From contig CAVXZB010000024.1 in the NCBI GenBank assembly GCA_963765895.1, positions 1 through 64,000 on the forward strand: a stretch of DNA of 64,000 bases, in the 5' to 3' direction. The translations under genes were made by a program, and so were the position numbers. Below, piece by piece: positions 2,925-41,345 of this stretch; the stretch's first letter is position 1; the number at the start of each line of letters is the position of its first letter. Source of the DNA: an uncultured Nitrososphaeraceae archaeon (GTDB lineage Archaea > Thermoproteota > Nitrososphaeria > Nitrososphaerales > Nitrososphaeraceae). Below the pieces are notes generated by a model, which saw only the letters and a program-made list of their open reading frames with translations, was not told the origin of the DNA and made no database searches.

Positions 2925-3539
2925 ATGTCGGGAATTCGTACATCAGGTGTTCTTGTGATTCCTGAGCAGTTTGCCGAATTTTTGGATTATTCCAAAGATA
3001 TTCTGATCACAAAGTCTGACTCTGAAAAGGTCTTGTTTTTTATTGACTGGTGCAAGAGCCGTGACATTGAGGAGACGATCCTCAGATTAAGTTCCGAAAC
3101 AAAAGGTGGTTGGGGGAAGAACCTACAGCTAGATTTTACTACAAATAGAATAATTGTTAGTCAAAAGGGAGTACTAAAAAAATTTGTAGATTTAGGTTAC
3201 GTTGCGGGAATGGCCCCTTATCCCTATCTACTCTTAAAAAACAAACTGAGGGAATCTGACTTCAGTTCTAACTCGTGTGTCATAAATCCAAGAGCATTAT
3301 TAGACAACCCTTCAAACTTTTATATTGAATATTCAAAAATAGATGCCTTCATTTTGAGAAAGGGCATAGAGACGACTATTACGAACATGGTTGGAAGGAT
3401 GATACAATCAAATTTCATTGAAATCCATTCTCAAACAAAAGTCTATGATTTCGCTCTGCCGGTCAATAAAAATGGAAAATATGAACAGATTGTTTTCTGG
3501 CTTGGAGTCGTGGTCCCAGTTAGCATCTCTACGCATTAA
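2925..3539 (+). CDS. Hypothetical protein in the urease cluster (possible PH-like beta domain)
   Basis: 204-aa ORF present in both arms, between the transporter and ureA. LDFTTNRIIVS resembles PH-like strands (weak). Confidence 0.7.
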   Translation: MSGIRTSGVLVIPEQFAEFLDYSKDILITKSDSEKVLFFIDWCKSRDIEETILRLSSETKGGWGKNLQLDFTTNRIIVSQKGVLKKFVDLGYVAGMAPYPYLLLKNKLRESDFSSNSCVINPRALLDNPSNFYIEYSKIDAFILRKGIETTITNMVGRMIQSNFIEIHSQTKVYDFALPVNKNGKYEQIVFWLGVVVPVSISTH

Positions 3540-3564: not shown

Positions 3565-3680
3565 ATAATCCTCTTTGAACTAAGCGTCAGTAGAAGGTGG
3601 TTTTCTTCAGAATTATAGCACGTAGGACTTCTACACTTAAATATTTCAGATCTATTCTATACAATGAGGTAATAGAAAAA

Positions 3681-3983
3681 TTGATGTTAGCACCGAGGGA
3701 AATGGAAAAGATGGTCATTTGGACTGCTGCACAAATTGCAGAAGGACGAAAGAAAAAAGGTGTAAAACTTAACTATCCTGAAGCCATTGCGTATATTGCA
3801 AACTTTGTTGTAGAAGGCGCAAGAGAAGGCAAAACTGTCGCTGATTTGATGAAATCAGCAAGAGAAGTTCTAAAGAGCGCCGACGTTATGAAAGGCGTTC
3901 CGGAAATGATACATACAGTTCAGGTAGAAGCTACATTCCCAGACGGCACTAAACTGGTAACAGTACATGACCCAGTTTATTAG
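3681..3983 (+). CDS. ureA: Urease gamma subunit
   Basis: [45 protein letters not shown] at 3666-3670 favours a start at 3681/3684 over 3597. Confidence 0.96.
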
Positions 3984-6244: not shown

Positions 6245-7804
6245 ATGATGTCAAATCCTAATTTTGGTGTGTGGAGACCGATGGCGGAGAGTATTGAGTT
6301 CAATGCTCTCGAATCAAACTCCAACGCAGTTATGGCCGTTGCCGATACAGTGAGGACGACTTTAGGACCTAAAGGATTGGATAAATTATTAATAGACCAA
6401 GCTATGAATAGGCATGTTTCAAATGACGGGGTAACCATTCTTCTCTCCCTAAGAGCTATTCATCCAGTAGCACGAATGATCGTGGAAATTGCTGAAAGAC
6501 AAGAACAGCTAGTAGGAGACGGTACTACAACAGCAGTTGTCATGGCTGCGGAAATGATCAAGGAAGGAAAGAAACTTGTAAAGGAGCTTGGCGTACATCC
6601 AACCAAAGTTGTTGAAGGAATAGATAGTGGAGTAAGGCACGCCTGTGAATTGTTAGAAGCCGAATCCAAAACAATTTCAATTAAGGATGTAGCATTAGAA
6701 CAAGTAGTAAATACATCACTTTCTTCAAAGTTAGACGGTAGACAACTTTCCTCACTCGTCATAACTGCTCTTAGAACAGTTGGAGAAAATGCAAGGTTTG
6801 ATGGTTCATTTGATTTTGATAAATCAATCATGGTAATACGGAAAACAAATATGGAAGATCGCATTGTGAGCGGATTAGTCTTGGAACGAAAGAGGGTAGA
6901 CCCAGCGATGCCGACTAAGATTAATGAAGCGAGGATTATGATTGCTAGACTTGATCTCAAGCCCGTAAAAGAATCTTGGCTCAAGGATAATAGCAAATAT
7001 CAGGAAATATTGAGCATGGAGAATGATAGAATAGAGAAATCGAAACAATTAGTCGACGCGATGATTGCAACTGGTGCGAATACTTTCCTGCTTGCTTCGA
7101 CAGAGATAGATCAAGTAGTTGAGGACTTGTTAGTCAGTCATAACGTATTTGCAGTGCGGATCTCTATAGAAGAGATGGAGTACATGTCTAGATATACTGG
7201 TGCAAAAATAGTTAGAATGATCGATGATTTGTCTAAACCTGACATAGTTGGCAAAGCAGATCGTGTATTCGAAGAGGAAGAAAATGGGGTTGTATGCATC
7301 GAGGGTGGATCGGGTAAGAATATGGTAACTTTGGTTGTCTCGGGATCAACTAAAGAAACTTCCCTGGAACGATGGAGGGCCGCTATTGATGGTGTAAATG
7401 CTGCTGAGGCGGCATTGAATAAGGGAGTCGTGGCAGGAGGGGGGGCCGCAGAATTGCATGTTATAGAGCAGGTAAAAGATATGCGGCTAAAGGGTCTTGA
7501 GCAGGTGGGACTTGAAGTTGTAGCATCGGCCCTTGAAAGTATAATGAGACAAATTCTCTCGAATGCTGGATACAATGGTTTAGAGAAGGTTATGGCTGCT
7601 AAAGCATCGCCTAGTGGTTTCGGCATAGATATCGATGGCGGGGAACCTGTTGATATGTGGAATAAGGGAATTTTGGACCCATTATTGGTTAAGACGATGG
7701 CCTTGAAAGCTGCTGGTGAAATAGCAAAATCTGTTTTGCGTATCGATAGAAACCTAGCCGCAGAAAATCTAGATCCCCACGCTGTTTCTGATACAAAGAG
7801 GTGA
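6245..7804 (+). CDS. Divergent group II-type chaperonin (thermosome/TCP-1 family) inside the urease operon (left copy)
   Basis: TTLGPKGLDKLL, SNDGVTIL, VGDGTTT, VVAGGGAAE, GILDP..VK motifs; 519 aa. Confidence 0.92.
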   Translation: MMSNPNFGVWRPMAESIEFNALESNSNAVMAVADTVRTTLGPKGLDKLLIDQAMNRHVSNDGVTILLSLRAIHPVARMIVEIAERQEQLVGDGTTTAVVMAAEMIKEGKKLVKELGVHPTKVVEGIDSGVRHACELLEAESKTISIKDVALEQVVNTSLSSKLDGRQLSSLVITALRTVGENARFDGSFDFDKSIMVIRKTNMEDRIVSGLVLERKRVDPAMPTKINEARIMIARLDLKPVKESWLKDNSKYQEILSMENDRIEKSKQLVDAMIATGANTFLLASTEIDQVVEDLLVSHNVFAVRISIEEMEYMSRYTGAKIVRMIDDLSKPDIVGKADRVFEEEENGVVCIEGGSGKNMVTLVVSGSTKETSLERWRAAIDGVNAAEAALNKGVVAGGGAAELHVIEQVKDMRLKGLEQVGLEVVASALESIMRQILSNAGYNGLEKVMAAKASPSGFGIDIDGGEPVDMWNKGILDPLLVKTMALKAAGEIAKSVLRIDRNLAAENLDPHAVSDTKR

Positions 7805-7813
7805 ATACTAGGT

Positions 7814-8155
7814 TTGCTTATACGTCATTGCGTGGAGGAGTCGAATATTGATGAGAATATGTTGGTATTAGACCCAACTCGCGTAAGGCATGTTGTGGTC
7901 GTTGCGGGAATGATCAAGTCCATGTCTGGAATGATTGATCCAGCTTCTCATCTCAATTTGGACTATCCAGATCATAAGGTCACCTCTTGTATCGTAGCTG
8001 AAAAGTTTGAAATTGGTGCTAAGGTGAAGATGCAAGAAAATGGCCTAGTATTTGTCTTAGTCGACTCGTCAAAATACGAACATTACGGCTATGTTGATTA
8101 CACTCAGAGGCTTTTCAACATGATTGATGCAGTAAAGAAGGGCGAGCAAAGATAG
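7814..8155 (+). CDS. Small uncharacterised urease-operon protein (left copy)
   Basis: Open in both arms with near-identical translation; lies between the chaperonin and ureE. Confidence 0.8.
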   Translation: MLIRHCVEESNIDENMLVLDPTRVRHVVVVAGMIKSMSGMIDPASHLNLDYPDHKVTSCIVAEKFEIGAKVKMQENGLVFVLVDSSKYEHYGYVDYTQRLFNMIDAVKKGEQR

Positions 8156-17085: not shown

Positions 17086-18380
17086 TTGGGAATGACGATT
17101 ACGGAAAAGATTCTGGCAAGGGCATCTGGAAAAAGCGTTGTCTCTCCAGATGAAGTGGTATTTGGTAATGTAGATAATGTAATGATGCACGATGTATCTG
17201 GTCCTGGTGTAATAAAGATCCTGACGGAGTGGGAGAAAAAGGGAAACAAGTTCAATCGAGTTTGGGACCCGGATAAAGTCTGGATTAGCGAGGATCATTT
17301 CGTGCCAGCCTCAGATCGGATATCTGCAGAGAATGTTGCTCTCTTATCAAGATGGACTAAAAAATTTGAGATAAGGCGTCACTTCAAATATGGGTTAGGA
17401 CAGTATGGGATATGCCACACTTTGTCGCACGAAGAAGGACTTGTTCTTCCCGGCCAAGTATACGTCGGAGGCGATTCTCATACTAATACCACCGGTGCGA
17501 CCGGTGCTTTCGCCACTGGTTTGGGGCACACAGATATTGCTTACGTCTTGATGAAAGGAAAAATATGGTTCAAGGTTCCTCAAACGTTACTTTTCAAATT
17601 AAATGGAAGGAAACCTGCGTATATCATGGCAAAGGATATGATTTTGCATATAATCGCTGATATAGGTATAGAAGGGGCCAACTACAAGTCGATGCAGTTT
17701 ACTGGAGATATAATAAAGGAAATCAGTATGGAAGAACGCCTTACTTTAACTAATATGTCGACTGAAGCGGGTGCAAAGAGTGGGATAATTGAACCTGACT
17801 CTGTAACCTACGACTATATAAACAAGCGTACTACATCTAATTACTCACCAATACACGGCGATGATAACGCTCAATATCTAGACATGTATGAGTATGAGAT
17901 TAATAAGCTAGAACCAACTGTTGCCAAACCTTTTTCTCCAGCCAATATCAGTACTGCTAGAGAACTACAAAGTATTGAAATAGATAAGGCCTATATAGGT
18001 TCATGCACTGGCGCTAAATTAGAAGATCTAAGAATGTCAGAAAGGATTCTGGATGGTAAAAAAAGGTGAAAGTGAGACCCGAAGTATTGCCTGTGCCGCT
18101 CAATCAAAATAGATTTGAAAGTTTTGAAAGAGGGTTTAATTCGACATATTTATGCAGGCAGGGGCGGTGAAAGTTGGTCCGCCTACTTGTGGGGCGTGCT
18201 GTGGCGCCCATATGGGTGTGCTTGCAAAGGATGGCAAGTATGCATAAGAATGACAAATAAGAAACTTTCCCGGGCGAATGCCTCATGTCGATTCAAAGAC
18301 CTACCTCGCTTCACCTGTGGTTGTTGGCTGTGTTGGCTTTGAAAGGCATTAATTACCGATCCAAAGGATTTGGACGATTC
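17086..18380 (+). CDS. leuC: 3-isopropylmalate dehydratase/homoaconitase large subunit (left copy, 3' part garbled by indels after ~18065; end approximate)
   Basis: MTITEKILARAS, GICH, GGDSHT, TNMSTEAGAK, IGSCTG. Confidence 0.85.
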
Positions 18381-20936
18381 AACATCAAGAAAAGGCTGAA
18401 GTTCGCAAATATGCTCGCGATAACATTGATACAGGACGTTATTATTCCTGGACGATACGTAAAAATTTCACGATCCAAAAGAATTGGCTATGCATGCCAT
18501 GGAAGGTATCGATCCTGGCTTCCACACCAAGGTATCCCCAGGCCATTTTCTATTATGTGGAGCAAATTTCGGATGTGGCTCCAGCAGGAGAACACGTGCC
18601 AATAGCCCTATCCAAATTAGGTATAAAGGCGATCTTAGCACCCCTCATTCGCAAGGATATTTTACAGAAATGCTGTTGATGGGGGTTATCTCTTGCCAAT
18701 TGAAAGAGAGAGATTCTACATTTGAACAAATAAGATGACAGGAACAAAAATAGATATTGATCTTCAGAATGACAGAATAATTAACCTGGGATAAAAACGA
18801 CAAGTCCTATTCGAATAAAGCCCTTATCAGATATGATAATCAAGATAGTTGAAGCGGGAGGCCTATTATACTATTCAGATGACGAGAAAGGCTCTGCTAG
18901 CTGAAATTCTTAGCAAAGCTAGACATTATGAGCGACTGTGAGAATTATCGAGTTGGATATAGATATTATGAGCAAATATTAGAAGTGTCTTTTCTATCTG
19001 AATTCCTGGATTTATCTGAGAATTTTGAAAAGATACCGGCAAGTAGAATTTATTTAGTGAAAAGGAACGGAATTTATCTATATCAAAGTCATAATTATGT
19101 GAAATTGCTTTCATAATACTCTGAACACGAACAATAAAAATAACTATATAAATCCCATTTACAAGTCACTGCTTATATTGGCACCATTATATCTTTTTAG
19201 AAGAGAATCACAGAAACAAAAATAAAGGAACAAAACGCCTGGGATTGTTCACTTATCCAGGCGTTCACTCATTATTTGATACTTGAGTCTACATAGCCTG
19301 AGCCTGTTATGTTCTGATCCCGTAGCGTTTGCTGCTGCTAGGGTAGCTGCTGCTATACTTTGGAGATCGTTGGACCATCTTACCTTTACTACCTACTACG
19401 TTTAATGGAGTATGTAGGATGTGAAGTCTTTAATTCTCGCCTCCTCCTGTATTCACAGGCTCAATAGCATTTCCTGTGAATGGATAAGAACCAGATTTGT
19501 CCTTTGATCCCAATGTTGCTTGTGTCACAGTATTCTTTCCCATTTTTATGATGTCTCTCATGACTTCCAAATTGCTTTGGTATTGCGGTCTTGTTATTAA
19601 GATTCAGAGCATTCCACTACAACAACCTTTACAGGTTTACTTGCCTGATATGTGAGTATTCCTGAATATACACCTTGTATTATTTCTAGGACTTAAAATA
19701 TGAGCTGAACTTTCTTTTTCATGTCCAGGAAAAATAGCCTTGCTTTTGAGGCTATGAAACCCTGCCAAACAACATTTTTGTTTAATGGAGGTTGATTTTG
19801 GGTAAATTCACCAGTACTTTGCTGACTAGAATTTGAGCTTCCTGAAGTACTTTGAGACGACGGTAATTCATTTGGTGTTACTGCAGTAGTTGATGGTGCA
19901 AGCATGCGTTTCCACCCGCAGAGCCTGAGGGTGATGTTGTATTGTTTTTCGATGCCCCCGCATTGTTGAATTGTTCACTGTTTGTTGGAGCTCATCCGCC
20001 ATGACCTAACGCCTGATGTGAGGGACTTGTGTGCCAGCTGCGTCTTACTGACAAAAGCAGAAATCCAGAGATTGCAATCGTTGTGATTACATACAATTTT
20101 TTCAGTTCATTCTTATGCATTATTAAAAAAAGGCACCGTCTGAAATTTAACTGTTTCATTATTCGCATCTGCAAATAAGTTCGATTTCTTCTTCTATATA
20201 AGAAAATAACCCTCTCAAATGATCTGATCTGGATATCTTATCTTCAAATTATAGATACGTACTTGAATACGCGGAAGGATTATATATCCTGGAGGCACCA
20301 TTACAAAATAAAAAATCTTGCACTGTCTCCCTCCTCGCCAATATGGGTAGCATATCTCCAAACTGGAGTATTCCAGTCAATCCTTACTTGTCTCTTTATT
20401 GTTCGTAAGGCAGCAAATTCCCTAATCAGGCTACCTTTTTTGGGTTTGTCAAGATTCGCAGTACAAAATTGACATATGGAAACTGAGCACTGGCATCCGC
20501 ATTTTTCGTATTTTCGGTGACGACTGGGTATGCAATGCATGCCAATGGACTGTTTCTTCATATATTATAACTCGATAGCCCACATTTGGGGCTCTCAGGT
20601 CTGAATAGGTATCAAGAAAAGGAGACAGTTATCTCCAGTAGCATACCTGTTTTGGATGATCTGATACATTAAAATTTCTTCCAGGACCATCACCAAGGCT
20701 ATTCCTACCAATTACTACTCGTGGGGGCCACACCTTCAATTTCCAAATTATTCCTTCGGGCACTTTCCCTCAATCTTTGATTTTTCGTGTGGTAACAGCA
20801 AGACACCAAATGTGCCAAGTACTCTATTGATGGAAAATATTGTCTATATATACAACAATCTGAACACCCATCGACACATCGAAATTGCTTATACATATAA
20901 GCTCACTATACTTTATGCTATTATACTCAACGCTAT
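18380..20936. other. Error-rich mirror copy of leuD/hacB, the DUF504-like gene, the Ser/Thr-rich secreted protein and the YkgJ-like gene
   Basis: Fragments (AMEGIDPGFHTKVSPG, ENYRVGY, NKNVVWQGF, FRCVDGCSDCC) match the right-arm genes but with dense indels. Confidence 0.8.
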
Positions 20937-20982
20937 CAGGATTTATCACCATATAGTGTTGAGTATAATAGCATAAAGTATA

Positions 20983-22968: not shown

Positions 22969-23458
22969 CTGAATAGTATAACAGGCCTCCCGCTTCAACG
23001 ATCTTGATTATCATATCTGATAAGGGTTTTATTCGATAGGACTTGTCGTTTTTATCCAGGTTAATTATTCTGTAGTTCTGAAGATCAATATCTATTATGT
23101 TCCCGTCATCTATTTGCTCAAGTGTAGACCTCTCTATTTCAATTGGCAAGAGATAACCCCCATCAACGGCGTTTCTGTAAAATATCCTTGCGAATGAGGG
23201 TGCTAAGATTGCCCTTATACCTAATTTGGATAGGGCTATTGGCGCGTGTTCTCTGCTGGAGCCACATCCGAAATTTGCTCCACATAATAGAAAATCGCCT
23301 GGGGATACCTTGGTGTGGAAGCCAGGATCGATACCTTCCATGGCATGCATAGCCAATTCTTTTGGATCGTGAATTTTTAGGTATGGTCCAGGAATAATAA
23401 CGTCTGTATCAATGTTATCGCGAGCATATTTGTGAACTCGGCCTTTCTTGATGTTCAA
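22943..23458 (-). CDS. leuD: 3-isopropylmalate dehydratase/homoaconitase small subunit
   Basis: DNIDTDVIIPGPYL, NFGCGSSREHA, SFARIFYRNA. Confidence 0.9.
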   Translation of the reverse strand: MNIKKGRVHKYARDNIDTDVIIPGPYLKIHDPKELAMHAMEGIDPGFHTKVSPGDFLLCGANFGCGSSREHAPIALSKLGIRAILAPSFARIFYRNAVDGGYLLPIEIERSTLEQIDDGNIIDIDLQNYRIINLDKNDKSYRIKPLSDMIIKIVEAGGLLYYSDDEKGSAS

Positions 23459-24736
23459 TTGTCCAAATCCCTTGGATCAGTAATTCTACCTTTCAAAGCC
23501 GACGCAGCAACAACAAGAGGTGAAGCGAGGTAGGTCTTTGAATCGACATGACCCATTCGCCCCGGAAAGTTTCTATTTGTAGTACTTATGCATACTTCAT
23601 CCTTTGCAAGCACACCCATATGGGCGCCACAGCAGGCCCCACAAGTAGGCGGACCAACTACCGCACCTGCCTGCATAAATATGTCGACTAAACCCTCTTT
23701 CAAAGCTTTCAAATATATTGATTGAGTAGCAGGCAATACCTCGGTTCTCACTTTCACCTTTTTACCATCCAGAAGCCTTGCTGACATTCTTAGGTCTTCT
23801 AATTTAGCGCCAGTGCATGAACCTATATAGGCCTTATCTATTTCAATACTTTGTAGTTCCCTAGCAGTACTGATATTGGCTGGAGAAAAAGGTTTGGCAA
23901 CAGTTGGTTCTAGCTTATTAATCTCATACTCATACATGTCTAAATATTGCGCGTTATCATCGCCGTGTATTGGTGAGTAATTAGATGTAGTAACGCTTGT
24001 TTATATAGTCGTACGTTACAGAGTCAGGTTCAATTATCCCACTCTTTGCACCCGCTTCAGTCGACATATTAGTTAAAGTAAGGCGTTCTTCCATACTGAT
24101 TTCCTTTATTATATCTCCGGTAAACTGCATCGACTTGTAGTTGGCCCCTTCTATACCTATATCAGCGATTATATGCAAAATCATATCCTTTGCCATGATA
24201 TACGCAGGTTTCCTTCCATTTAATTTGAAAAGTAACGTATGAGGAACCTTGAACCATATTTTTCCTTTCATCAAGACGTAAGCAATATCTGTGTGCCCCA
24301 AACCAGTGGCGAAAGCACCTGTCGCGCCGGTGGTATTAGTATGAGAATCGCCTCCGACGTATACTTGGCCGGGAAGAACAAGTCCTTCTTCGTGCGACAA
24401 AGTGTGGCATATCCCATACTGCCCTAATCCATATTTGAAGTGACGCCTTATCTCAAATTTTTTAGTCCATCTTGATAAGAGAGCAACATTCTCTGCAGAT
24501 ATCCGATCTGAGGCTGGCACGAAGTGATCCTCGCTAATCCAGACCTTATCCGGGTCCCAAACTCGATCGAACTTGTTTCCCTTTTTCTCCCACTCCGTCA
24601 GGATCTTTATTACACCAGGACCAGATACGTCGTGCATCATTACATTATCTACATTACCAAATACCACTTCATCTGGAGAGACAACACTTTTTCCAGATGC
24701 CCTTGCCAGAATCTTTTCCGTAATCGTCATTCCCAA
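23455..24736 (-). CDS. leuC: 3-isopropylmalate dehydratase/homoaconitase large subunit (frameshift near 23990)
   Basis: DSHT, IGSCTG, CGACCG, STTNRNFPGRMG. The frameshift is absent from the left copy. Confidence 0.9.
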
Positions 24737-30799: not shown

Positions 30800-31729
30800 T
30801 CAACCTTTCCTTAAGCCGCTAAAATTTGCATTCAACACATGTTTTCGAACTATTTTTAGAACTTCAAATATCGCATTTCTAATATCACCCGCCAAATGTC
30901 CAAGCATTCGCACAACTATTCCCGAAGAGCCTGGAAGGATGGAAGATCCTCCAACAATAGAATCAGACCCCCTCAACGTCGCATTTATCTCATCATTGAG
31001 GATTCGTACATATCTTCGCTGCGCGAGCACATATACGCTACCGACAACAGTATAATTGCCCAAAATTCCTATAATACTCAAATTTCTTTTTTTTGGTTCC
31101 AATATGGCTATATCGATAAATCGCAGATTATCCAAATAATCTCGTGCTACTGCCTTTAGATAGCAAATATCATATTCAAAGGACTCCCCACTTGCAACTC
31201 TGCCTGGAACAACCATCTCAGAATATACTGCCGTTGCATTTTCATGTACTTTGAAATTAAGAGTTTGGTAGAACCTTGAATCCCGATACGGAATAATTTG
31301 ATCGGGGATAAATTCAAAATAACAGTCTTCGTCGACTGATACATTCACCATCTGCGTTGCGAAATTTTTTTCCATCCTGTATATTCTGGTAGCCCCTTGT
31401 GTAGTTATGTGGGCACAAGCATTATTCGTAACCGTAATATCCATTCTATATCTATCGCCCTGTAATATTCCGCCAGACGGTGAAATAATAAATACATAGG
31501 CCATTGAGGGTAGAGATTCTTCTAGGTATAGTGCTCGTTGTGTAAAGAGGGGCACTCGGGAATACTGGTCGGTGATTATAGTCTTGTTCCTTTGTACGTC
31601 ATTTTCCAATCTTAATACTAGTGCTCCGATCTTACCAGCTTTTCCAATTCCTAGTTGATCGAGTTTTTGGTCATATGCAAGTACCTCTGGTGGTATATCA
31701 CCAGGCGTATAGTATTGAATCTCGCTCAT
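30800..31729 (-). CDS. ureD: Urease accessory protein UreD
   Basis: Mirror of 10102..11031. Confidence 0.93.
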   Translation of the reverse strand: MSEIQYYTPGDIPPEVLAYDQKLDQLGIGKAGKIGALVLRLENDVQRNKTIITDQYSRVPLFTQRALYLEESLPSMAYVFIISPSGGILQGDRYRMDITVTNNACAHITTQGATRIYRMEKNFATQMVNVSVDEDCYFEFIPDQIIPYRDSRFYQTLNFKVHENATAVYSEMVVPGRVASGESFEYDICYLKAVARDYLDNLRFIDIAILEPKKRNLSIIGILGNYTVVGSVYVLAQRRYVRILNDEINATLRGSDSIVGGSSILPGSSGIVVRMLGHLAGDIRNAIFEVLKIVRKHVLNANFSGLRKG

Positions 31730-31738
31730 CAACGTAAC

Positions 31739-32395
31739 CTAATTTTTCACTAAGGCTTTTGGAGTCTCCTCGAAAAGGACGTCCCTTATGATATTCTCGG
31801 CTACTTCATTTACTCCCTGACCTGTCCTTGAGTTAACAAATACATAAGGTTTGTTTCCACGAACGGTCTTGGCATCCCTATCCATCACTGTCAGGTCAGC
31901 TCCAACTGAGGGGGCAATATCTATCTTGTTTATGACCAAAAGATCACAAGTCTCTATTCCGAGCCCACGTTTTCTAGGGTATTTGTCGCCTCCAGAAACA
32001 TCTATAATATAAATAAAGTAGTCTGCCAAAGCAGGGCTAAACGTAGTCGTGATATTGTCTCCTCCGCTTTCAATTATAATCAGATCAAGGTAATCATGTT
32101 TGGATTCCATTTCTTCTACTACTGAAATATTCATAGACGGATCCTCACGCACAGCCGTATGCGGACATCCTCCAGTCGCTAGACCTATAACAAGATCTTC
32201 TGCCATCAGTCCCTTCTCAGTTGCCAGATTTCTTCTCATACGATCAGCATCTTCACGTGATACTACATCATTTGAAATTATCCCAACCTTATAGCCTTTT
32301 AAATACAAAAGAGGGACTACCTGCTCGATTAACATAGTTTTTCCTGAACCAACTGGCCCACCAATTCCTACTCGAGGTATTCTCTTTGAACTCAT
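31739..32395 (-). CDS. ureG: Urease accessory GTPase UreG
   Basis: P-loop and CPH motif. Confidence 0.97.
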   Translation of the reverse strand: MSSKRIPRVGIGGPVGSGKTMLIEQVVPLLYLKGYKVGIISNDVVSREDADRMRRNLATEKGLMAEDLVIGLATGGCPHTAVREDPSMNISVVEEMESKHDYLDLIIIESGGDNITTTFSPALADYFIYIIDVSGGDKYPRKRGLGIETCDLLVINKIDIAPSVGADLTVMDRDAKTVRGNKPYVFVNSRTGQGVNEVAENIIRDVLFEETPKALVKN

Positions 32396-32414: not shown

Positions 32415-33125
32415 TCATGTAATAAACATTTTTGAAGGCATGAGCTCGTGAGCTATTTGGAAAATATCGATGCCCGGAGTAAATTGCCACATGCTGGACA
32501 ATGGTCTATTTATATTCTTTGCCACTGTAGCCAAGATCGAAGGTTTTAGTTGGTGGATCAATTTCTGACCATCAAGGTGCTGTATCATTCCTAACCTAAG
32601 AGCCGCTCCGATAATGCTGACAATAAAAGTGTAAAGCATCATGATACCACTGTTATATTTTGATATGCCTAACGATTGGCTTGCAACTGCCAGTGCGACT
32701 GGATAAACACCGGAGGCCTTGTTCTGTTTGATGGCTTCTTGAAATTTGGTGATGAATTCGTTACCAGGTAGGAAATAGTTTACGCATCTTAGAAGCTGAG
32801 TGCCAGACCTTGCAGATGCGTTCCTGACCTCTTCGATAAGCTTCATTGAGTAGATGGTTCGATCCACTTTTATCAATTCATTAATATTAGCCATTTCAAT
32901 ACAGCCGTATGATACGCCTAGAGCAGTGCAATCAGCCGGTCCTATCTGGTGCTCCAGATAGACTGTTATCATGGTCCTAAGCTCGTCGGGGGTTTTTATC
33001 TTATTTTCACTGTAAAATAGTGCCTCAAGTCCGCTAGATGTTGTATACATTCCGGTTGGAAAGAAGGAATCAGAAAGTTGTAAAATACTAATCTCCTCAG
33101 CCTGTGGATCATAGTTAGTGTTCAT
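32415..33125 (-). CDS. ureF: Urease accessory protein UreF
   Basis: LSDSFFPTG..HELMPSKMFIT. Confidence 0.93.
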   Translation of the reverse strand: MNTNYDPQAEEISILQLSDSFFPTGMYTTSSGLEALFYSENKIKTPDELRTMITVYLEHQIGPADCTALGVSYGCIEMANINELIKVDRTIYSMKLIEEVRNASARSGTQLLRCVNYFLPGNEFITKFQEAIKQNKASGVYPVALAVASQSLGISKYNSGIMMLYTFIVSIIGAALRLGMIQHLDGQKLIHQLKPSILATVAKNINRPLSSMWQFTPGIDIFQIAHELMPSKMFIT

Positions 33126-33627
33126 GAATATGTGATCCTTCTTCTGGTTCAAACACCATATGCGCCTTGTTTATCTTGATATGGTCAATTATAGGATCTA
33201 GGAGCTTTCTAAACATCTCGAGCTCTGTATCAGCCTGGATTGGAAAGTAGATTTTTCGACCCTCTATTCTAAGAGGCCTATGCAAATTTCCGATTGTATG
33301 CCCTAGCCGTACAGGAATTTCTATGGAATTCAGATTCCCAATATCTTCATTAATGGATATCGTGGCAACGTTTTCAGGTTCAATTTCGATTATGATCATC
33401 TTATTTGGACTAGACAAGACCACATCTTTGTGTCTTAGTAGAATCCCCTGCGGCAAAGTGAAGGCGATATCTGTTCCCTTATCGGAGGTCTTGCGCATCC
33501 TTACGCGTTGCGACTCGGACCTTTGAATCCGAATAACCTCACATAAGTTGATTTTTGACAATTGTTCGTATTTGTCTGCAAATTCTGCATCCTTAACATT
33601 CCCAAGTATAGAATTAATGGTAATCAT
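33115..33627 (-). CDS. ureE: Urease accessory protein UreE
   Basis: GHTIGNLH and HIHEH tail. Confidence 0.92.
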   Translation of the reverse strand: MITINSILGNVKDAEFADKYEQLSKINLCEVIRIQRSESQRVRMRKTSDKGTDIAFTLPQGILLRHKDVVLSSPNKMIIIEIEPENVATISINEDIGNLNSIEIPVRLGHTIGNLHRPLRIEGRKIYFPIQADTELEMFRKLLDPIIDHIKINKAHMVFEPEEGSHIHEH

Positions 33628-34023
33628 TTAGCCTATGACACTTCGCTTACCTGAGATTGTCTCATTCATATGTCTATCTTTGCTGCCCTTCTTTACTGCA
33701 TCAATCATGTTGAAAAGCCTCTGAGTGTAATCAACATAGCCGTAATGTTCGTATTTTGACGAGTCAACTAAGACAAATACTAGGCCATTTTCTTGCATCT
33801 TCACCTTAGCACCAATTTCAAACTTTTCAGCTACGATACAGGAGGTGACCTTATGATCTGGATAGTCCAAATTGAGATGAGAAGCTGGATCAATCATTCC
33901 AGACATGGACTTGATCATTCCCGCAACGACCACAACATGCCTTATACGAGTTGGGTCCAATACCAACATATTCTCATCAATATTCGACTCCTCCACGCAA
34001 TGACGTATAAGCAAACCTGGCAT
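33628..34023 (-). CDS. Small uncharacterised urease-operon protein
   Basis: ATG directly abuts the chaperonin stop (TGA-ATG). The C-terminal end differs between arms by one indel. Confidence 0.8.
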   Translation of the reverse strand: MPGLLIRHCVEESNIDENMLVLDPTRIRHVVVVAGMIKSMSGMIDPASHLNLDYPDHKVTSCIVAEKFEIGAKVKMQENGLVFVLVDSSKYEHYGYVDYTQRLFNMIDAVKKGSKDRHMNETISGKRSVIG

Positions 34024-35583
34024 TCACCTCTTTGTATCAGAAACTGTCTGGGGATCTAGATTTTCTGCGGCTAGGTTTCTATCGATACGCAAAACAGATT
34101 TTGCTATTTCACCAGCAGCTTTCAAGGCCATCGTCTTAACCAATAATGGGTCCAAAATTCCCTTATTCCACATATCAACAGGTTCCCCGCCATCAATATC
34201 TATGCCGAAACCACTAGGCGATGCTTTAGCAGCCATAACCTTCTCTAAACCATTGTATCCAGCATTCGAGAGAATTTGTCTCATTATACTTTCAAGGGCC
34301 GATGCTACAACTTCAAGTCCCACCTGCTCAAGACCCTTTAGCCGCATATCTTTTACCTGCTCTATAACATGCAATTCTGCGGCCCCCCCTCCTGCCACGA
34401 CTCCCTTATTCAATGCCGCCTCAGCAGCATTTACACCATCAATAGCGGCCCTCCATCGTTCCAGGGAAGTTTCTTTAGTTGATCCCGAGACTACCAAAGT
34501 TACCATATTCTTACCCGATCCACCTTCGATGCATACAACCCCATTTTCTTCCTCTTCGAATACACGATCTGCTCTGCCAACTATGTCAGGTTTAGACAAA
34601 TCATCGATCATTCTAACTATTTTTGCACCAGTATATCTAGACATGTACTCCATCTCTTCTATAGAGATCCGCACTGCAAATACGTTATGACTGACTAACA
34701 AGTCCTCAACTACTTGATCTATCTCTGTCGAAGCAAGCAGGAAAGTATTCGCACCAGTTGCAATCATCGCATCGACTAGTCGTTTCGATTTCTCTATTCT
34801 ATCATTCTCCATGCTCAATATTTCTTGATATTTGCTATTATCCTTGAGCCAAGACTCTTTTACGGGTTTGAGATCAAGTCTAGCAATCATAATCCTCGCT
34901 TCATTAATCTTAGTCGGCATCGCTGGGTCTACCCTCTTTCGTTCCAGGACTAATCCGGTCACAATGCGATCTTCCATATTTGTTTTCCGTATTACCATGA
35001 TTGATTTATCAAAATCAAATGAACCATCAAACTTTGCATTTTCTCCAACTGTTCTAAGAGCAGTAATGACGAGTGAGGAAAGTTGTCTACCGTCTAGCTT
35101 TGAAGAAAGTGATGTATTTACTACTTGTTCTAATGTTACTTCCTTAATTGAAATTGTTTTGGATTCGGCTTCTAACAATTCACAGGCGTGCCTTACTCCA
35201 CTGTCTATTCCTTCAACAACTTTGGTTGGATGTACGCCAAGCTCCTTTACAAGTTTCTTTCCTTCCTTGATCATTTCCGCAGCCATGACAACTGCTGTTG
35301 TAGTACCGTCTCCTACTAGCTGTTCTTGTCTTTCAGCAATTTCCACGATCATTCGTGCTACTGGATGAATAGCTCTTAGGGAGAGAAGAATGGTTACCCC
35401 GTCATTTGAGATATGCCTATTCATAGCTTGGTCTATTAATAATTTATCCAGTCCTTTAGGTCCTAAAGTCGTCCTCACTGTATCGGCAACGGCCATAACT
35501 GCGTTGGAGTTTGATTCGAGAGCATTGAACTCAATACTCTCCGCCATCGGTCTCCACACACCAAAATTAGGATTTGACATCAT
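34024..35583 (-). CDS. Divergent group II-type chaperonin inside the urease operon
   Basis: LGPKG, NDG, GDGTTT, GGGAAE motifs. Confidence 0.92.
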   Translation of the reverse strand: MMSNPNFGVWRPMAESIEFNALESNSNAVMAVADTVRTTLGPKGLDKLLIDQAMNRHISNDGVTILLSLRAIHPVARMIVEIAERQEQLVGDGTTTAVVMAAEMIKEGKKLVKELGVHPTKVVEGIDSGVRHACELLEAESKTISIKEVTLEQVVNTSLSSKLDGRQLSSLVITALRTVGENAKFDGSFDFDKSIMVIRKTNMEDRIVTGLVLERKRVDPAMPTKINEARIMIARLDLKPVKESWLKDNSKYQEILSMENDRIEKSKRLVDAMIATGANTFLLASTEIDQVVEDLLVSHNVFAVRISIEEMEYMSRYTGAKIVRMIDDLSKPDIVGRADRVFEEEENGVVCIEGGSGKNMVTLVVSGSTKETSLERWRAAIDGVNAAEAALNKGVVAGGGAAELHVIEQVKDMRLKGLEQVGLEVVASALESIMRQILSNAGYNGLEKVMAAKASPSGFGIDIDGGEPVDMWNKGILDPLLVKTMALKAAGEIAKSVLRIDRNLAAENLDPQTVSDTKR

Positions 35584-35661
35584 AAGGACATGTCAAACAG
35601 ACAAAAATAAAGATATTGAAAACATCAAAAATAAAAAAAATTGAGTTTTTCTTGGTCGAAG

Positions 35662-37389
35662 TTATGCCATAAAGTACCTTTGGGCAGAAGAAAGTTCTTT
35701 TGCCGGATCAACTGTTGCAATCTTGCCGTCCAATTTTACCTCATATGTCTCAGGATCAATCGTTATTTCTGGAGTCTTGTCATTCCACATCATATTTCTT
35801 TTGCTAATGCTTCTACAGTTCTTTACTGGCAAGACTACTTTCTCTAATCCTAATTTTTCTGGGACGCCTAGCTTTACTGCCGCCTTTGATGTGAATGTGA
35901 ACGATGTCTTCTGTACAGCCTTTCCGAGTGCTCCAAACATAGGTCTATAGAATACTGGTTCTGGCGTTGGAAGCGAAGCATTAGGATCTCCCATTATTGA
36001 CCACGCAATGAATCCTCCCTTGAATATCATTTTTGGCTTTGCCGGGAAGAAGGCTGTTGAATACATTGCGATATCAGCATATTTTCCTACTTCAAGTGAG
36101 CCCAAATAATCTGCAACTCCGTGCGTGGTTGCAGGATTTATTGTGGTTTTCGCAATGTACCTCTTTGCTCTGAAGTTGTCATTACCTTCTGAGTCTTCTT
36201 TCAGACTACCCTTCATTTTCTTCATTTTATCGGCTGTCTGCCATGCTCGTATCACAACTTCACCTATTCTACCCATTGCTTGGCTATCTGAGGAATACAT
36301 ACTTAGAACACCTTCGTCATGTAATACGTCCTCGGCTGCAATCGTTTCTGCTCTAATACGAGATTCTGCAAAGTGTACGTCCTCTGGGACACTTGGGTTC
36401 AGGTGATGACAAAACATCAGCATATCAAGATGCTCAGCTATAGTATTCATTGTATACGGTCTTGTGGGATTTGTCGATGATGGTAAGGCAAAGGGTTCGC
36501 CAGCAATCTTCATAATATCAGGGGCGTGTCCACCACCAGCTCCTTCTGTATGATAGGTATGTAATGTTCGCCCATCTATCGCGTTGATAGTGTCTTCTAC
36601 GTATGCGCATTCATTAATGGAATCTGTATGTATTGCTAACTGAGTATCCGTTAGATCACATGCTCTGAGCGATGCATCCAAGACTGCCGCAGTTGTTCCC
36701 CAGTCCTCGTGGTCCTTTAGCCCGCAGGCGCCTGCTTCAATCTGTTCCATCTGCGTAGCTAGAGATGGATGTGAATCATTCCCTTTACCAAGGAATCCGA
36801 AATTCATTGGTATATCCTCTATAGATTCTAACATTCGGCTCATATTGAATACGCCAGGGGTACAAGTTGTAGCATTAGTCCCATCAGCAGGTCCAGTACC
36901 TCCACCTATCATATTACATATTCCTCCACTTATGGCATCGATATATTGTTGGGGAGAGATGTTATGAACATGAGTATCAAAATGTCCAGGAGTGCATATT
37001 GTATGCTCCCCTGCGGTTGCCTCTGTACATGCTGATACTACCATATTCTTACTTACCTTATCCATGATGTTCGGGTTCCCTGCTTTGCCGATCCCGGCGA
37101 TCTTTCCGTCCTTTATACCGATGTCTCCTTTTACTATGCCAATTTCAGGATCCAATACGACTGCATTTGTGATTAGAAAATCAAGGGCACCATTAGCATT
37201 GGTTACACCTGGTGTTTGAGCCAAGCCATCTCTTATCGTTTTGCCCCCACCAAATACACACTCATCTCCAGGAGTTATGAAATCCTTTTCTATCTCAATT
37301 AATAAATCAGAATCTCCCAATCTTACCTTATCTCCAGTCGTTGGACCGAATAAATCTGTGTATTGTTTGCGAGTTAATTTAAGAACCAT
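35662..37389 (-). CDS. ureC: Urease alpha subunit (intact)
   Basis: All Ni-ligand motifs present. Start [10 protein letters not shown] at 37389. Confidence 0.97.
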
Positions 37390-37405
37390 TATTAATCTTC
37401 TCCTT

Positions 37406-37795
37406 TTATGCGCCCCTAAAGCCCTGCTTCTTTGCCTTTTCCAGTGCCGCGTTTTTTGCAACCGATGAATTCAGTCCTCCCATTACAAGCCCGTTAAATC
37501 CATGCACAACGCGAGACCCTCCCAATTCGCACAATTCTACCTCCTTAGAATCACCTGGCTCAAATCTCACTGAAGTACCTGCAGGAATATTCAATCTAAA
37601 CCCAAACGCCTTTTCTCTTGGAAAGTCTAGTGCTCTATTTACTTCAAAGAAGTGAGTGTGTGAACCGACCTGGCAAGGTCTATCTCCGGCATTCTTGACA
37701 TTGATTTTGATTGTCTTTTTATTCTCATTGCAATTAACAGGGCTTTGTGCCAAAACATATTCTCCAGGGATCATATTTTTGGAACCTTCCTCCAT
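37406..37795 (-). CDS. ureB: Urease beta subunit
   Basis: Same translation as 4035..4424. Confidence 0.97.
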
Positions 37796-37846
37796 AATTG
37801 GTTTTTTTTAATTTTCATCTTTTTGGTATCAACCAACTAAAATCAC

Positions 37847-38150
37847 CTAATAAACTGGGTCATGTACTGTTACCAGTTTAGTGCCGTCTGGGAATGTAGC
37901 TTCTACCTGAACTGTATGTATCATTTCCGGAACGCCTTTCATAACGTCGGCGCTCTTTAGAACTTCTCTTGCTGATTTCATCAAATCAGCGACAGTTTTG
38001 CCTTCTCTTGCGCCTTCTACAACAAAGTTTGCAATATACGCAATGGCTTCAGGATAGTTAAGTTTTACGCCTTTTTTCTTTCGTCCTTCTGCAATTTGTG
38101 GCGACAGTCCAAATGACCATCTTTTCCATTTCCCTCGGTGCTAACATCAA
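37847..38150 (-). CDS. ureA: Urease gamma subunit (frameshift near 38103)
   Basis: Mirror of 3681..3983 with one extra base. Confidence 0.9.
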
Positions 38151-38267
38151 ATTTTTCTATTACCTCATTGTATAGAATAGATCTGAAATATTTAAGTATA
38201 GAAGTCCTACGTGCTATAATTCTGAAGAAAACCACCTTCTACTGACGCTTAGTTCAAAGAGGATTAT

Positions 38268-38292: not shown

Positions 38293-38908
38293 TTAATGCG
38301 TAGAGATGCTAACTGGGACCACGACTCCAAGCCAGAAAACAATCTGTTCATATTTTCCATTTTTATTGACCGGCAGAGCGAAATCATAGACTTTTGTTTG
38401 AGAATGGATTTCAATGAAATTTGATTGTATCATCCTTCCAACCATGTTCGTAATAGTCGTCTCTATGCCCTTTCTCAAAATGAAGGCATCTATTTTTGAA
38501 TATTCAATATAAAAGTTTGAAGGGTTATCTAATAATGCTGCTGGATTTATGACACACGAGTTAGAACTGAAGTCAGATTCCCTCAGTTTGTTTTTTAAGA
38601 GTAGATAGGGATAAGGGGCCATTCCTGCAACGTAACCTAAATCTACAAATTTTTTTAGTACTCCCTTTTGACTAACAATTATTCTATTTGTAGTAAAATC
38701 TAGCCGTAGATTCTTCCCCCAACCACCTTTTGTTTCGGAACTTAATCTGAGGATCGTCTCCTCAATGTCACGGCTCTTGCACCAGTCAATAAAAAACAAG
38801 ACCTTTTCAGAGTCAGACTTTGTGATCAGAATATCTTTGGAATAATCCAAAAATTCGGCAAACTGCTCAGGAATCACAAGAACACCTGACGTACAGAATT
38901 CCCGACAT
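38293..38908 (-). CDS. Hypothetical urease-cluster protein (indel near the 5' end)
   Basis: Mirror of 2925..3539. Confidence 0.7.
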
Positions 38909-39152: not shown

Positions 39153-40325
39153 CTAAGGTCTTGACCAGCCTATTCCTGCTGGAATATGCATTAATCCTGC
39201 TGTTGCTATCATCCAAACCCAAGCAGTAAACACAAAGGGACCAGTTAGCGCAGGAAGTCCCCATGTTCCAAAGAATTTTTGCAACGCAGGCATTACAACT
39301 ACTGAACAGGTCACGGTGGCCAATATAGCCATGAAAAATGTTTGAGGTGTCAACGGAAGAAATGAGGTAAGTGCGATCATTACCAGGACTTGATTAAATC
39401 CGTGAAGACCTATCCTTACCTCAGCAGTAGGCAGCTTTGTTAGAATTGCCAAGGCGGCTCCAATAGCCGAACCAATCAGCGCCATTAACCCCCCAAGGTA
39501 AAGCGGAGACAAGGGGTTCCATCCGGCAGTATAAGCGTTAGTCCACCAAGGACGAACTTGCACACCAGTCGCGGTTGTTATTATTGGGGCAAGCTCAAAT
39601 GCTAATGTAAGCCCGACCACCCAAAAGACGCCTGTCTTCCAGTTTTCGACAAATGTGACCTGTGAAACACCCTTCAGCGTTGCAATCATAAATTCCTTAG
39701 CAGTCCATTTAAAAGGAGCTGAGGGCTCCGGATTGCCACTTCCAGGAATCAATACTTCCTTCTCGGGCGGAGGAAGCTCTGGCCATATATCATGACCATA
39801 TCTTCTACTAGCATACATCATTGCCCAGGTAGTAAATATGAATGATGACGTAAATCCAGGTATCGCCCAGCCGTGGCCGCCATTAACAAATATATCGCCC
39901 ATCCAGTGACCAAAAGCTTGCCATACTACTGCAGTTATAGCAGCTCCGAATACAGATATCCAGAATGTGGCTTTGTTTGCCTTCACAAATGGACCTGACC
40001 AAAATGCCATACCCGTCAAAATCGAGTTATAACCAAACAAACCAAAGGCAACATTTGTATAAGAAGCACCGAATATAATGGCCATTCCTGCTCCGATAAG
40101 TCCAGCCAGGACCATCATTGCACCAGCTTTTCTTGAAGCCAAAAACACTCCTGAAACAATTAAAATCCCAGTTACTGGTGAACTAAATAACGGTACCTCA
40201 GAAATACCATTAAACAAAATATAGAAGAAGTCCAATACTGGATTTCCGGTTGAGTAAGTAGCCGACCCAGCTATTGGTGCAACGGCCGCAATTATCGGGA
40301 GGAATGAATGAAATACTTCTATCAA
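39153..40325 (-). CDS. UT-family urea transporter (intact, 390 aa)
   Basis: Two homologous halves with G-x-x-G-Y/F-N and P-x-x-T-x-x-F signatures; highly hydrophobic. Confidence 0.92.
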   Translation of the reverse strand: MIEVFHSFLPIIAAVAPIAGSATYSTGNPVLDFFYILFNGISEVPLFSSPVTGILIVSGVFLASRKAGAMMVLAGLIGAGMAIIFGASYTNVAFGLFGYNSILTGMAFWSGPFVKANKATFWISVFGAAITAVVWQAFGHWMGDIFVNGGHGWAIPGFTSSFIFTTWAMMYASRRYGHDIWPELPPPEKEVLIPGSGNPEPSAPFKWTAKEFMIATLKGVSQVTFVENWKTGVFWVVGLTLAFELAPIITTATGVQVRPWWTNAYTAGWNPLSPLYLGGLMALIGSAIGAALAILTKLPTAEVRIGLHGFNQVLVMIALTSFLPLTPQTFFMAILATVTCSVVVMPALQKFFGTWGLPALTGPFVFTAWVWMIATAGLMHIPAGIGWSRP

Positions 40326-40805: not shown

Positions 40806-41345
40806 ATGATAGACGCGATCGATGAGTTGATTCTATCCACGCTAAGTAAGAATTCTAAACAAGACACCGTAGAGATATGCGATTATCTAAGGGACTATGG
40901 ACATAACGTGACTGAGGATGAAATAGATTCTCGAATTATCAGTTTAGAGAAGGAAAAAGTGATTTCGCGATATACTATTTCCATTGATTCAACAAAGATT
41001 AAACGTAGGATTATAAGGGTCGCACTCGTTCGCTTTAAGGTATCGCAACACCTTCTCAAGCGACTAGAGGGTCTAAAGAAATACCTAACTGAAGCCCCGT
41101 TTGTGCTCTATTGCGGACGAACCAGAGGTGGATATGACTGGATTACTATTCAATGCTTTCTGAATGAAGATGTTGCTGATGAGGAAAGTGACATCTATCG
41201 AAATCTGTTTGGAGATATTATTCAGTCATATGAAGTATATGACTTTATACCGATGAAAGAACTATCGACTCACGCACTTGCTCATACATTTGACGAGCAC
41301 AGAAAATTCTTAGGTGAGTGGATTTCACCCTTTCTTGGCAGATGA
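40806..41345 (+). CDS. Lrp/AsnC-family transcriptional regulator
   Basis: wHTH plus RAM-like domain; divergent from the urea transporter. Confidence 0.75.
   Translation: MIDAIDELILSTLSKNSKQDTVEICDYLRDYGHNVTEDEIDSRIISLEKEKVISRYTISIDSTKIKRRIIRVALVRFKVSQHLLKRLEGLKKYLTEAPFVLYCGRTRGGYDWITIQCFLNEDVADEESDIYRNLFGDIIQSYEVYDFIPMKELSTHALAHTFDEHRKFLGEWISPFLGR

Follow-up and report, generated by a model that had tools for sequence, protein, structure and literature searches.

Introduction

In Helicobacter pylori, Hsp60 is the general chaperonin of the cell; it belongs to group I, depends on a GroES-type lid and has its gene outside the ure operon. The HspA of Helicobacter carries a nickel-binding tail. 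In passages of Abby et al. (2018, PMC5797428), the Helicobacter Hsp60 serves as the example of a chaperonin functionally tied to urease, and the analogy is drawn for an 'Hsp60 homolog (arCOG01257)' reported in the urease loci of Candidatus (Ca.) Nitrosocaldus cavascurensis and of Nitrososphaerales. The same passages describe this homolog as absent from Nitrosopumilales and distinct from the conserved thermosome, propose that it stabilises urease as in Helicobacter (citing Evans et al. 1992), and suggest an en-bloc acquisition from bacteria. Here we analyse a chaperonin gene that lies between ureC and ureE in a stretch of 64,000 nucleotides from an uncultured Nitrososphaeraceae archaeon (GenBank assembly GCA_963765895.1, contig CAVXZB010000024.1, positions 1 to 64,000; hereafter the window). 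The gene is an ordinary member of the family described in 2018 and as such already known, since it shares with it both the position between ureC and ureE and the reported distribution over soil ammonia-oxidising archaea (AOA) and Nitrosocaldus. With the H. pylori Hsp60 its product has no sequence kinship beyond the superfamily.

A first-pass annotation of the window had put the gene forward as a candidate for an undescribed system, a claim that has to be given up, as both the gene and the same hypothesis are found in Abby et al. (2018). What the present comparison adds is members of the family in anammox bacteria and in a Methanomassiliicoccus-like lineage, a co-conserved small partner protein, a placement outside the canonical thermosomes, and promoter-like signals. 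In the literature on urease and chaperonins in AOA, anammox bacteria and Methanomassiliicoccus, searched with the supplements left outside, we found no experimental test of such a link.

Results

The chaperonin is tied to urease genes in ammonia-oxidising archaea

The gene order on the minus strand of the window is UT-family urea transporter, an open reading frame (ORF) without a family, ureA, ureB, ureC, chaperonin, small ORF, ureE, ureF, ureG and ureD (Table 1). The chaperonin starts 78 nt after the end of ureC, the ATG of the small ORF directly abuts the TGA stop of the chaperonin, and the accessory set UreD, UreE, UreF and UreG, whose families are matched by neither the chaperonin nor the small ORF, is complete beside them. 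The Pfam family PF00118 (Cpn60_TCP1) recognises the chaperonin with an E-value of 1.7e-105 and 354 bits (cut-off 34.3), residues 32-502 aligning with model positions 1-484 of 490. The first-pass annotation had described a 519-aa chaperonin 78 bp after ureC on the same strand, followed at once by a small ORF and ureEFGD, and in this the reading frames, the gap, the abutment of stop and start codons and the Pfam matches all agree with it; the observation is real and needs only the strand of the chaperonin to be specified as minus.

The distribution of the gene was followed in two overlapping samples, one of 151 genomes of the order and one of 111 genomes of the family, and the counts include four genomes flagged as unpublished (G108, G173, G203 and G225), of which the claims made here are independent. 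In the order sample, orthologues are present in 18 genomes beyond the window's own, with 67-78% identity and at least 790 bits; every other chaperonin match stays at or below 36% identity, the next best full-length one reaching 35% (230 bits). All 18 orthologues lie downstream of ureC on the same contig and strand, 1.7-2.1 kb after the ureC start. The family sample yielded 77 matches in 75 genomes, and the start of ureC is found 1688-2139 nt upstream in 67 of them. The remaining 10 are at contig ends, and the six that were checked are all in ure clusters, with the small ORF after the chaperonin in every case, the 3' end of ureC upstream in four and a full ureE-ureF-ureG run in five.

Presence of the chaperonin follows the presence and the type of ureC. 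Of the 151 order genomes, 44 have a true ureC match, and in none of the 107 ureC-negative ones was a full-length chaperonin copy seen. Within the order, the orthologues are restricted to two families (f1 and f9) and were found in 0 of 23 and 0 of 24 genomes of two others (f13 and f10, respectively). Among the genomes of the family sample, 70 of the 73 with a type-1 ureC, the type found in the window, carry the chaperonin, and none of the 18 with type 2 only does so. In one ureC-negative genome (G045; locus L036, 9340-12790), a fragment of the chaperonin (residues 220-452) persists between an integrase fragment and ureF-ureG-ureD, and ureABC, the small ORF and ureE are gone; the chaperonin decays there together with the ure locus. 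Synteny and co-occurrence with ureC, which the first-pass annotation had proposed to examine, are found in both samples, and the equal occurrence in urease-negative genomes that it had named as the contrary outcome is not what the 107 ureC-negative order genomes display.

Relatives in anammox bacteria and in a Methanomassiliicoccus-like lineage

Among 1.84 billion representatives searched exhaustively, only three clusters of this kind of chaperonin were found, namely that of AOA (P0059), a second at 41% identity (P0124) and a third at 38% (P0126), which together form what we call clade B. The next matches, at 33-37% identity, are bacterial TCP-1/cpn60 proteins of Thermoactinomyces, Peptococcaceae and Bacillota (P0127, P0129, P0132).

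Sequences related to P0124 at 65-71% identity were found in Ca. Scalindua sediminis, Ca. Subterrananammoxibius and Brocadia sp., among others. The anammox chaperonin is 42-45% identical to that of the window and directly follows ureD in 10 of 10 loci, and seven anammox loci display the whole array of ureA-B-C, small ORF, ureE-F-G-D and chaperonin. Among 92 Brocadiales genomes, the chaperonin is present in 10, ureC in nine and both in eight; the one genome with ureC only has a different UreC type. The chaperonin-bearing anammox bacteria also have 3 to 4 matches each in the GroEL range (260-277 bits). Two chaperonin copies on separate contigs are seen in one Ca. Subterrananammoxibius genome (G240), one at the end of a ureE-F-G-D-chaperonin run (L038) and the other in a whole cluster (L043). 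As to the uptake of urea by anammox bacteria, passages of one paper describe the ABC-type urt system and not UT (PMC10467342).

The P0126 lineage is represented by five metagenome loci in archaeal context. In all five the chaperonin divergently adjoins a UT urea transporter, which is 50-60% identical to that of the window, and in one of them ureD comes next. Named relatives are Ca. Methanomassiliicoccus intestinalis (84%), a Methanomicrobiales metagenome-assembled genome (MAG; 65%), a Nitrososphaerota MAG (57%) and, over a partial length, Acidiplasma (48%); after these come the AOA urease chaperonins at 35-38%. For M. intestinalis, passages of Borrel et al. (2014, PMC4153887) report a ureA-G operon and a urea transporter. 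Neither 'chaperon*' nor 'thermosome' occurs in the main text of two papers describing anammox urease operons, and the main text of the Methanomassiliicoccales papers examined does not mention a urease chaperonin.

A position inside the operon after ureC, as the first-pass annotation had it, does not hold as the general rule, the anammox copy following ureD and that of the P0126 lineage standing beside the urea transporter. To judge from gene neighbourhoods, it is these three gene orders in three phyla, all of them tied to urea genes, that argue most strongly for a functional link. In a UreC tree of 28 sequences, anammox UreC (support 100) is sister to all AOA UreC (94), and within AOA type 1 (100) splits from a group of type 2 with the UreCs of families f4 and f13 (99). 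On the simplest reading of this thinly sampled tree, the chaperonin and the small ORF would both have been present in the ancestral operon of these ureases and later been lost from one AOA branch; inter-domain transfer is equally possible. The en-bloc acquisition from bacteria suggested by Abby et al. (2018) is neither shown nor excluded by the present trees.

Clade B stands outside the canonical thermosomes

The curated NCBIfam thermosome models TIGR02339, NF041082 and NF041083 give the window's chaperonin 301.2, 302.3 and 295.4 bits, under all three cut-offs (671.1, 450 and 400). Two trees rooted on the GroEL of E. coli, one by FastTree with 169 rows and one by IQ-TREE under LG+C20+F+G4 with 57 rows, both resolve three groups, that is, a bacterial TCP-1-like clade, clade B, and canonical group II including the housekeeping thermosomes of AOA. 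Clade B unites the AOA urease-linked sequences, P0124 with its anammox members, and P0126 (support 100, stem 0.5-0.76). The canonical group II clade (122 and 30 sequences) excludes it with support 100 in both trees, and clade B is sister to that clade with support 88-89. The bacterial TCP-1-like clade (25 and 11 members) is apart from clade B, with moderate supports of 98 and 82. Forcing the AOA urease-linked chaperonins into one clade with the AOA thermosomes, to which the window's chaperonin is 31-36% identical, was rejected (delta lnL 214, p-AU 3e-7). From the low thermosome scores, the separate deep clade and the rejection of the forced grouping it follows that the gene is not a recent paralogue of housekeeping thermosomes, of which the window's genome has an intact ordinary one (624 bits) and a second that is broken by stop codons.

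The first-pass annotation had called the protein a substrate-specialised group II paralog. What stands of this is a divergent, ATPase-competent and lidded chaperonin of group II type, falling outside the housekeeping thermosomes in the phylogeny with these and bacterial TCP-1-like sequences that the annotation had recommended; a derivation from housekeeping thermosomes does not stand.

Compared with canonical thermosome, Mm-cpn and CCT chaperonins (PDB 1a6d, 1q3r, 5w79), the protein has the same three-domain fold (TM 0.74-0.81), and with the canonical thermosome it has in common the ATP motifs, including the Asp at the catalytic position, and a helical protrusion of normal length. Relative to the thermosome, it lacks three residues of the IRKTN-MEDR stretch as well as the GGM tail, its loop behind the SK(L) motif is shorter, ERWR..DG replaces DE.ER..HDA, and the lid bears the KESW signature. 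Group III chaperonins, the bacterial TCP-1/cpn60-like proteins for which a link to dnaK operons has been reported, are of similar length (about 505-525 aa), also lack a GGM tail and resemble the window's protein in structure (PDB 5x9v, TM 0.74-0.77); they are the top-scoring relatives outside clade B in the representative search (33-37%), yet form a clade of their own in both trees.

Three further observations concern the chaperonin trees and searches. The Nitrosocaldaceae-like genomes of family f9 stand beside genus g6 in the chaperonin trees (support 92-93) but branch at the base of family f1 in the UreC tree (97), a conflict that could reflect transfer or differences in rate. Two matches of the representative search (P0125, 1057 aa; P0128, 1047 aa) each have two chaperonin-like stretches and look like tandem-fused chaperonins; one of them is named 'thermosome subunit alpha [Candidatus Freyarchaeota archaeon]'. 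The third is a thermosome paralogue, here cpn2, which was located in three genomes (G121, G030 and G112; L118 10067-11752, L119 1258-2997 and L120 1681-3480), shares 43-47% identity with AOA thermosomes, whose sister it is in the tree, and in 15 of 23 loci with a second, accessory-less (type-2) ureABC set divergently adjoins the ureA of that set. We considered cpn2 as another urease chaperonin but do not regard it as dedicated to urease, because genes like it were also seen in nine genomes that lack a ureC match (G160, G181, G189, G196, G217, G153, G218, G224 and G226). Of these nine, seven also lack a clade-B chaperonin, and two (G181 and G217) carry ure clusters in which the N-terminus of ureC is off the contig.

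The protein retains the ATPase motifs and the lid

The translation contains LGPKG, SNDG, GDGTTT, RAAIDG and GGGAAE as well as the apical/lid and hinge segments LKPVKESWLKDNSKYQEILSMENDRIEK and IMVIRKTNMEDR quoted in the first-pass annotation, and it ends in ...DPQTVSDTKR without a Gly/Met-rich tail, so that the annotation described the protein correctly in its ATPase motifs, in these two segments and in the absence of a GGM tail. In 26 of 26 clade-B sequences LGPKG, NDG, GDGTT[TS], GGG and the Asp at the catalytic position are invariant, the Asp of the clade-B IDG lining up with the Asp of the thermosome HDA and of the E. coli GroEL EDA. The lid (protrusion) region is two residues shorter than in thermosomes and thus of normal length; its signature LDLKP[VI]KESW[LI]K is common to AOA and anammox members, and KESW is found throughout the clade. 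An AF2 model of the chaperonin (pLDDT 82, pTM 0.79) places helices 243-247 and 252-275 in the protrusion, the tip (243-245) having a pLDDT below 50, and superposes on the chaperonins of Thermococcus, Methanococcus and Thermoplasma with TM 0.74-0.81 and on a closed group III chaperonin with TM 0.74-0.77. With the ATPase motifs intact and an apical lid retained in sequence and model, the chaperonin looks active.

A small His/Cys protein accompanies the chaperonin

The small ORF has a core of about 105 aa that begins near M-x-IRHCVEE, and its invariant residues are R7, H8, E11, N14, H29, G42, H49, L50, N51, H57, C62, F68, G95 and D98. It adjoins the chaperonin in 18 of 18 AOA loci and directly follows ureC in seven anammox loci, and a hidden Markov model (HMM) of it (E <= 1) found no match in 12 chaperonin-less urease loci, in the five P0126 loci or in the decayed locus of G045. 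No Pfam family matches the window's copy, none matches more than one of 21 members, and NCBIfam has none for it; homologues number 962, and among the matches listed none of the 120 bears a functional name. The predicted structure (pLDDT 85.9) is a beta-rich domain with a C-terminal helix, for which a Foldseek search of the PDB gave nothing at E <= 0.001 (best 0.48), a search of PDB sequences with the small-ORF profile no match at E <= 10, and the ESM Atlas only scores below 0.8. A wide VIA-align search returned a single row, the NagA amidohydrolase at Z 2.2, several weak rows also being amidohydrolases. These rows suggested a likeness to the beta-domain of UreC, an idea that was dropped, since hhalign of the small-ORF profile against UreC found nothing. 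A complex prediction for the chaperonin with the small protein ended at a score of 0.00 with 'no answer', which is evidence neither for nor against binding. That the small protein binds a metal is a guess from its invariant His and Cys.

The 3' end of the small ORF differs between its two copies in the window (Table 1). Contigs from four RNA runs have insertions of 2 nt and 13 nt at 33663-33688 relative to the window; the last 20 or so residues of the second copy are therefore probably frameshifted, and both this 3' end and the abutment with ureE are probably assembly errors.

Proposed transcription with the accessory genes

The spacer between ureC and the chaperonin contains a run of eight and a run of five T, then a TATA-like box about 20-29 nt before the chaperonin ATG. 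By eye, an A/T box of the TTTATCT or ATATATA type is seen at the same distance in 18 of 18 related loci, mostly after T-runs. We infer that the T-runs are an archaeal terminator and the TATA-like box a promoter, which suggests that the chaperonin would be the first gene of a unit that continues with the small ORF and ureEFGD and receives some read-through from ureABC. In four soil or rhizosphere RNA libraries from four studies, contigs cover 30 of 30 bins of 33000-38000 at 92-99% identity; the junction of ureC and the chaperonin is bridged by listed contigs in three of the four, and the stretch from the chaperonin over the small ORF to ureE in all four. Contig depth over ureC exceeded that over the chaperonin in three RNA runs, a measure that cannot rank genes and was not used. 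The chaperonin is apparently transcribed with the accessory genes beside it, and the TATA-like box and T-runs of the spacer suggest that it is not simply co-transcribed with ureC in the urease operon described in the first-pass annotation.

Neighbouring genes and the mirror copy

Table 1. Positions of the urease cluster and its mirrored features within the window
Feature	Coordinates	Strand	Remarks
Chaperonin (P0001), 519 aa	34024..35583	minus	Cpn60/TCP-1, clade B; PF00118 match, 354 bits
ureC-chaperonin spacer, 78 nt	35584..35661	minus	T8 and T5 runs, TATA-like box 'ctttattttt'
Small partner ORF	33628..34023	minus	core about 105 aa; no family or fold
ureC (urease alpha), type 1	35662..37461	minus	PF00449 and PF01979
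ureB (urease beta)	37406..37795	minus	PF00699, E 8.6e-43
ureA (urease gamma) position, broken	37849..38235	minus	coordinates mirrored from arm 1
ureA, intact copy, arm 1	3597-3983	plus	PF00547, E 7e-43
ureE	33115..33627	minus	UreE_N and UreE_C
ureF	32415..33152	minus	family match
ureG	31739..32395	minus	family match
ureD	30800..31732	minus	family match
UT-family urea transporter, cluster head	39153..40325	minus	PF03253
Chaperonin mirror copy, palindrome arm 1	6245..7804	plus	98% protein identity
Small ORF, arm-1 version	7814-8155	–	3' end differs from arm-2 version

The annotated TTG start of ureC is probably some 24 codons too far upstream, alignments of UreC beginning near residue 25. Between the urea transporter and ureA lies a 194-aa ORF (38293-38877, minus strand; 2925-3539, plus strand) that belongs to no Pfam or NCBIfam family, is found at 35-53% identity in five of six type-1 AOA loci examined and was seen in none of the anammox loci. 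Divergent from the transporter is a 179-aa ORF (40806-41345, plus strand) with a weak helix-turn-helix of the Lrp/AsnC type (LrpA model, E 1e-5, far under the cut-off), possibly a regulator of the urease cluster.

The mirror copy of the chaperonin reported in the first-pass annotation does exist, but as one arm of a palindrome rather than as part of a second operon. The palindrome extends from position 38 to about 41793, with arms of 20.9 kb and no spacer at the hinge (about 20936-20953), and begins at the first bases of the contig. The arms are 96.8% identical across 20.4 kb, with 524 mismatches and 101 indels (37 in homopolymers), with identity dropping to 89-92% close to the hinge. The sets of broken genes differ between the arms: in arm 1 they are ureC, the urea transporter and STT3, and in arm 2 it is ureA, whose mirrored position there holds no ORF of at least 60 aa. 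Aconitase-family (LeuC-like) genes are in pieces in both (17086-18069, plus strand; 23455-24736, minus strand), which is further evidence of frameshift errors in the assembly. Within intact genes, 57 of 89 differences between the arms fall at third codon positions, transitions outnumber transversions 70 to 19, and 60 codon differences are synonymous against 26 non-synonymous (13 and 9, respectively, in the chaperonin), a pattern that looks evolutionary, not random. The divergence of the arms matches that to other species of the genus, whose chaperonin proteins are 98% (G172) and 97% (G187) identical, and among six genomes of the genus only this one has two copies of ureC and of the chaperonin. 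The palindrome is probably a terminal fold-back of the assembly or a chimera of strains, not two operons; being a palindrome arm with arm-specific broken genes, in the single genome of six with two copies, the mirror copy should not be read as a second operon.

Discussion

We propose, with a probability of roughly 0.6, that the product of the gene is a ring chaperonin driven by ATP, closed by its own lid and reserved for urea utilisation, which would be made together with the maturation proteins and would fold or hold UreC or apo-urease, the small protein serving as a second helper. Clade B would then have been inherited and transferred together with urease or urea-transport genes. Heading a maturation unit of chaperonin, small His/Cys protein, ureE, ureF, ureG and ureD, the chaperonin may take up the 62-kDa UreC, or the apo-urease, and keep it folded or held until UreDFG and UreE carbamylate it and load the nickel; the small partner could be a metal-handling or an adaptor factor.

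Several points weigh against this proposal. The role in urease has so far been proposed on analogy with Helicobacter (Abby et al. 2018). As many as 25 of the 44 ureC-positive order genomes are without the chaperonin (eight of family f1, four of f4 and 13 of f13), among them all 13 ureC-positive f13 and all four ureC-positive f4 genomes, and so urease does not need the chaperonin in general. Nor is a feature of a client visible in UreC, as the comparison of chaperonin-linked with other UreCs turned up no indel and only six distinguishing columns. In the P0126 lineage the chaperonin stands outside the ure operon, beside the transporter, and the surrounding 10 kb or so contain no urease structural gene. 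The outgroup of the UreC tree is thin (four sequences), and the deep placement of clade B may be inflated by long branches (stems 0.76-0.91; sister support 88-89). Contigs of RNA libraries, finally, cannot prove a single transcript, and carry-over of DNA is possible.

A bolder form of the proposal would make clade B a fourth ancient chaperonin branch dedicated to urea metabolism that moved between Archaea and Bacteria with urease and that forms, in AOA and anammox bacteria, a two-part module with a metal-binding His/Cys protein of new fold. We hold this larger claim only tentatively and rate its chances below even. If true, a chaperonin reserved for a nickel enzyme would be on record for the first time, and the two proteins would be an overlooked pair of urease accessory factors.

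Of the other explanations, the one that survives best is that the chaperonin and the small His/Cys protein constitute a module for handling nickel or for activation, in which the ring would be a scaffold or holdase and the small protein would supply or buffer the metal, loosely like the nickel-binding co-chaperonin of Helicobacter. It accords with the four invariant His and one Cys of the small protein, together with its Glu and Asp, with its strict co-occurrence with the chaperonin in AOA and anammox bacteria, always just before ureE, and with the abutting stop and start codons of the two genes; the Helicobacter Hsp60 link cited in passages of Abby et al. (2018) points the same way. Metal binding, on the other hand, is predicted from residues alone, the HMM finds no small ORF in the five P0126 loci, and the full ATPase site and lid of the chaperonin are what would be expected of a foldase. 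We consider this explanation unlikely, though the likeliest of the rivals.

Somewhat less probable still is that a general or stress chaperonin hitchhikes near urea genes, for example through a shared regulation under nitrogen or energy limitation, and has no urease-specific client. The probable promoter of its own and the P0126-lineage copy outside the ure operon would fit such a gene, and cpn2, which stands beside ureABC in some genera and yet occurs in nine genomes without a ureC match, is a warning that adjacency alone can mislead. Hitchhiking does not sit well, however, with a linkage to urea genes that three unrelated lineages have kept in three gene orders, with the lack of full-length copies in the 107 ureC-negative order genomes and the loss together with the locus in G045, or with the housekeeping thermosomes or GroELs that are present alongside. 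A service to the urea transporter or to urea sensing instead of urease, such as UT biogenesis or regulation, is very improbable: a UT gene lies directly beside the chaperonin in all five P0126 loci and heads the AOA cluster, but the anammox chaperonin follows ureD, anammox urt is of the ABC type and not UT, and polytopic membrane proteins are not known as clients of cytosolic chaperonins.

The gene and the hypothesis of its role have been in print since 2018, and the window contributes a further member, the comparison making the case stronger and wider rather than constituting a discovery. A broader distribution, a deep clade and a partner protein turn the role of this chaperonin into a well-posed and testable problem. 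For the evolution of chaperonins, one devoted to a single enzyme would be instructive. Urea is a major source of nitrogen and energy for soil nitrifiers, whose ureases are hard to study, and a missing helper could explain why these enzymes are poorly expressed in heterologous hosts. If the chaperonin and the small protein are indeed accessory factors, the textbook UreDEFG scheme of maturation would be incomplete for the whole urease lineage shared by soil ammonia oxidisers and anammox bacteria, and possibly by the lineage of the gut methanogen M. intestinalis.

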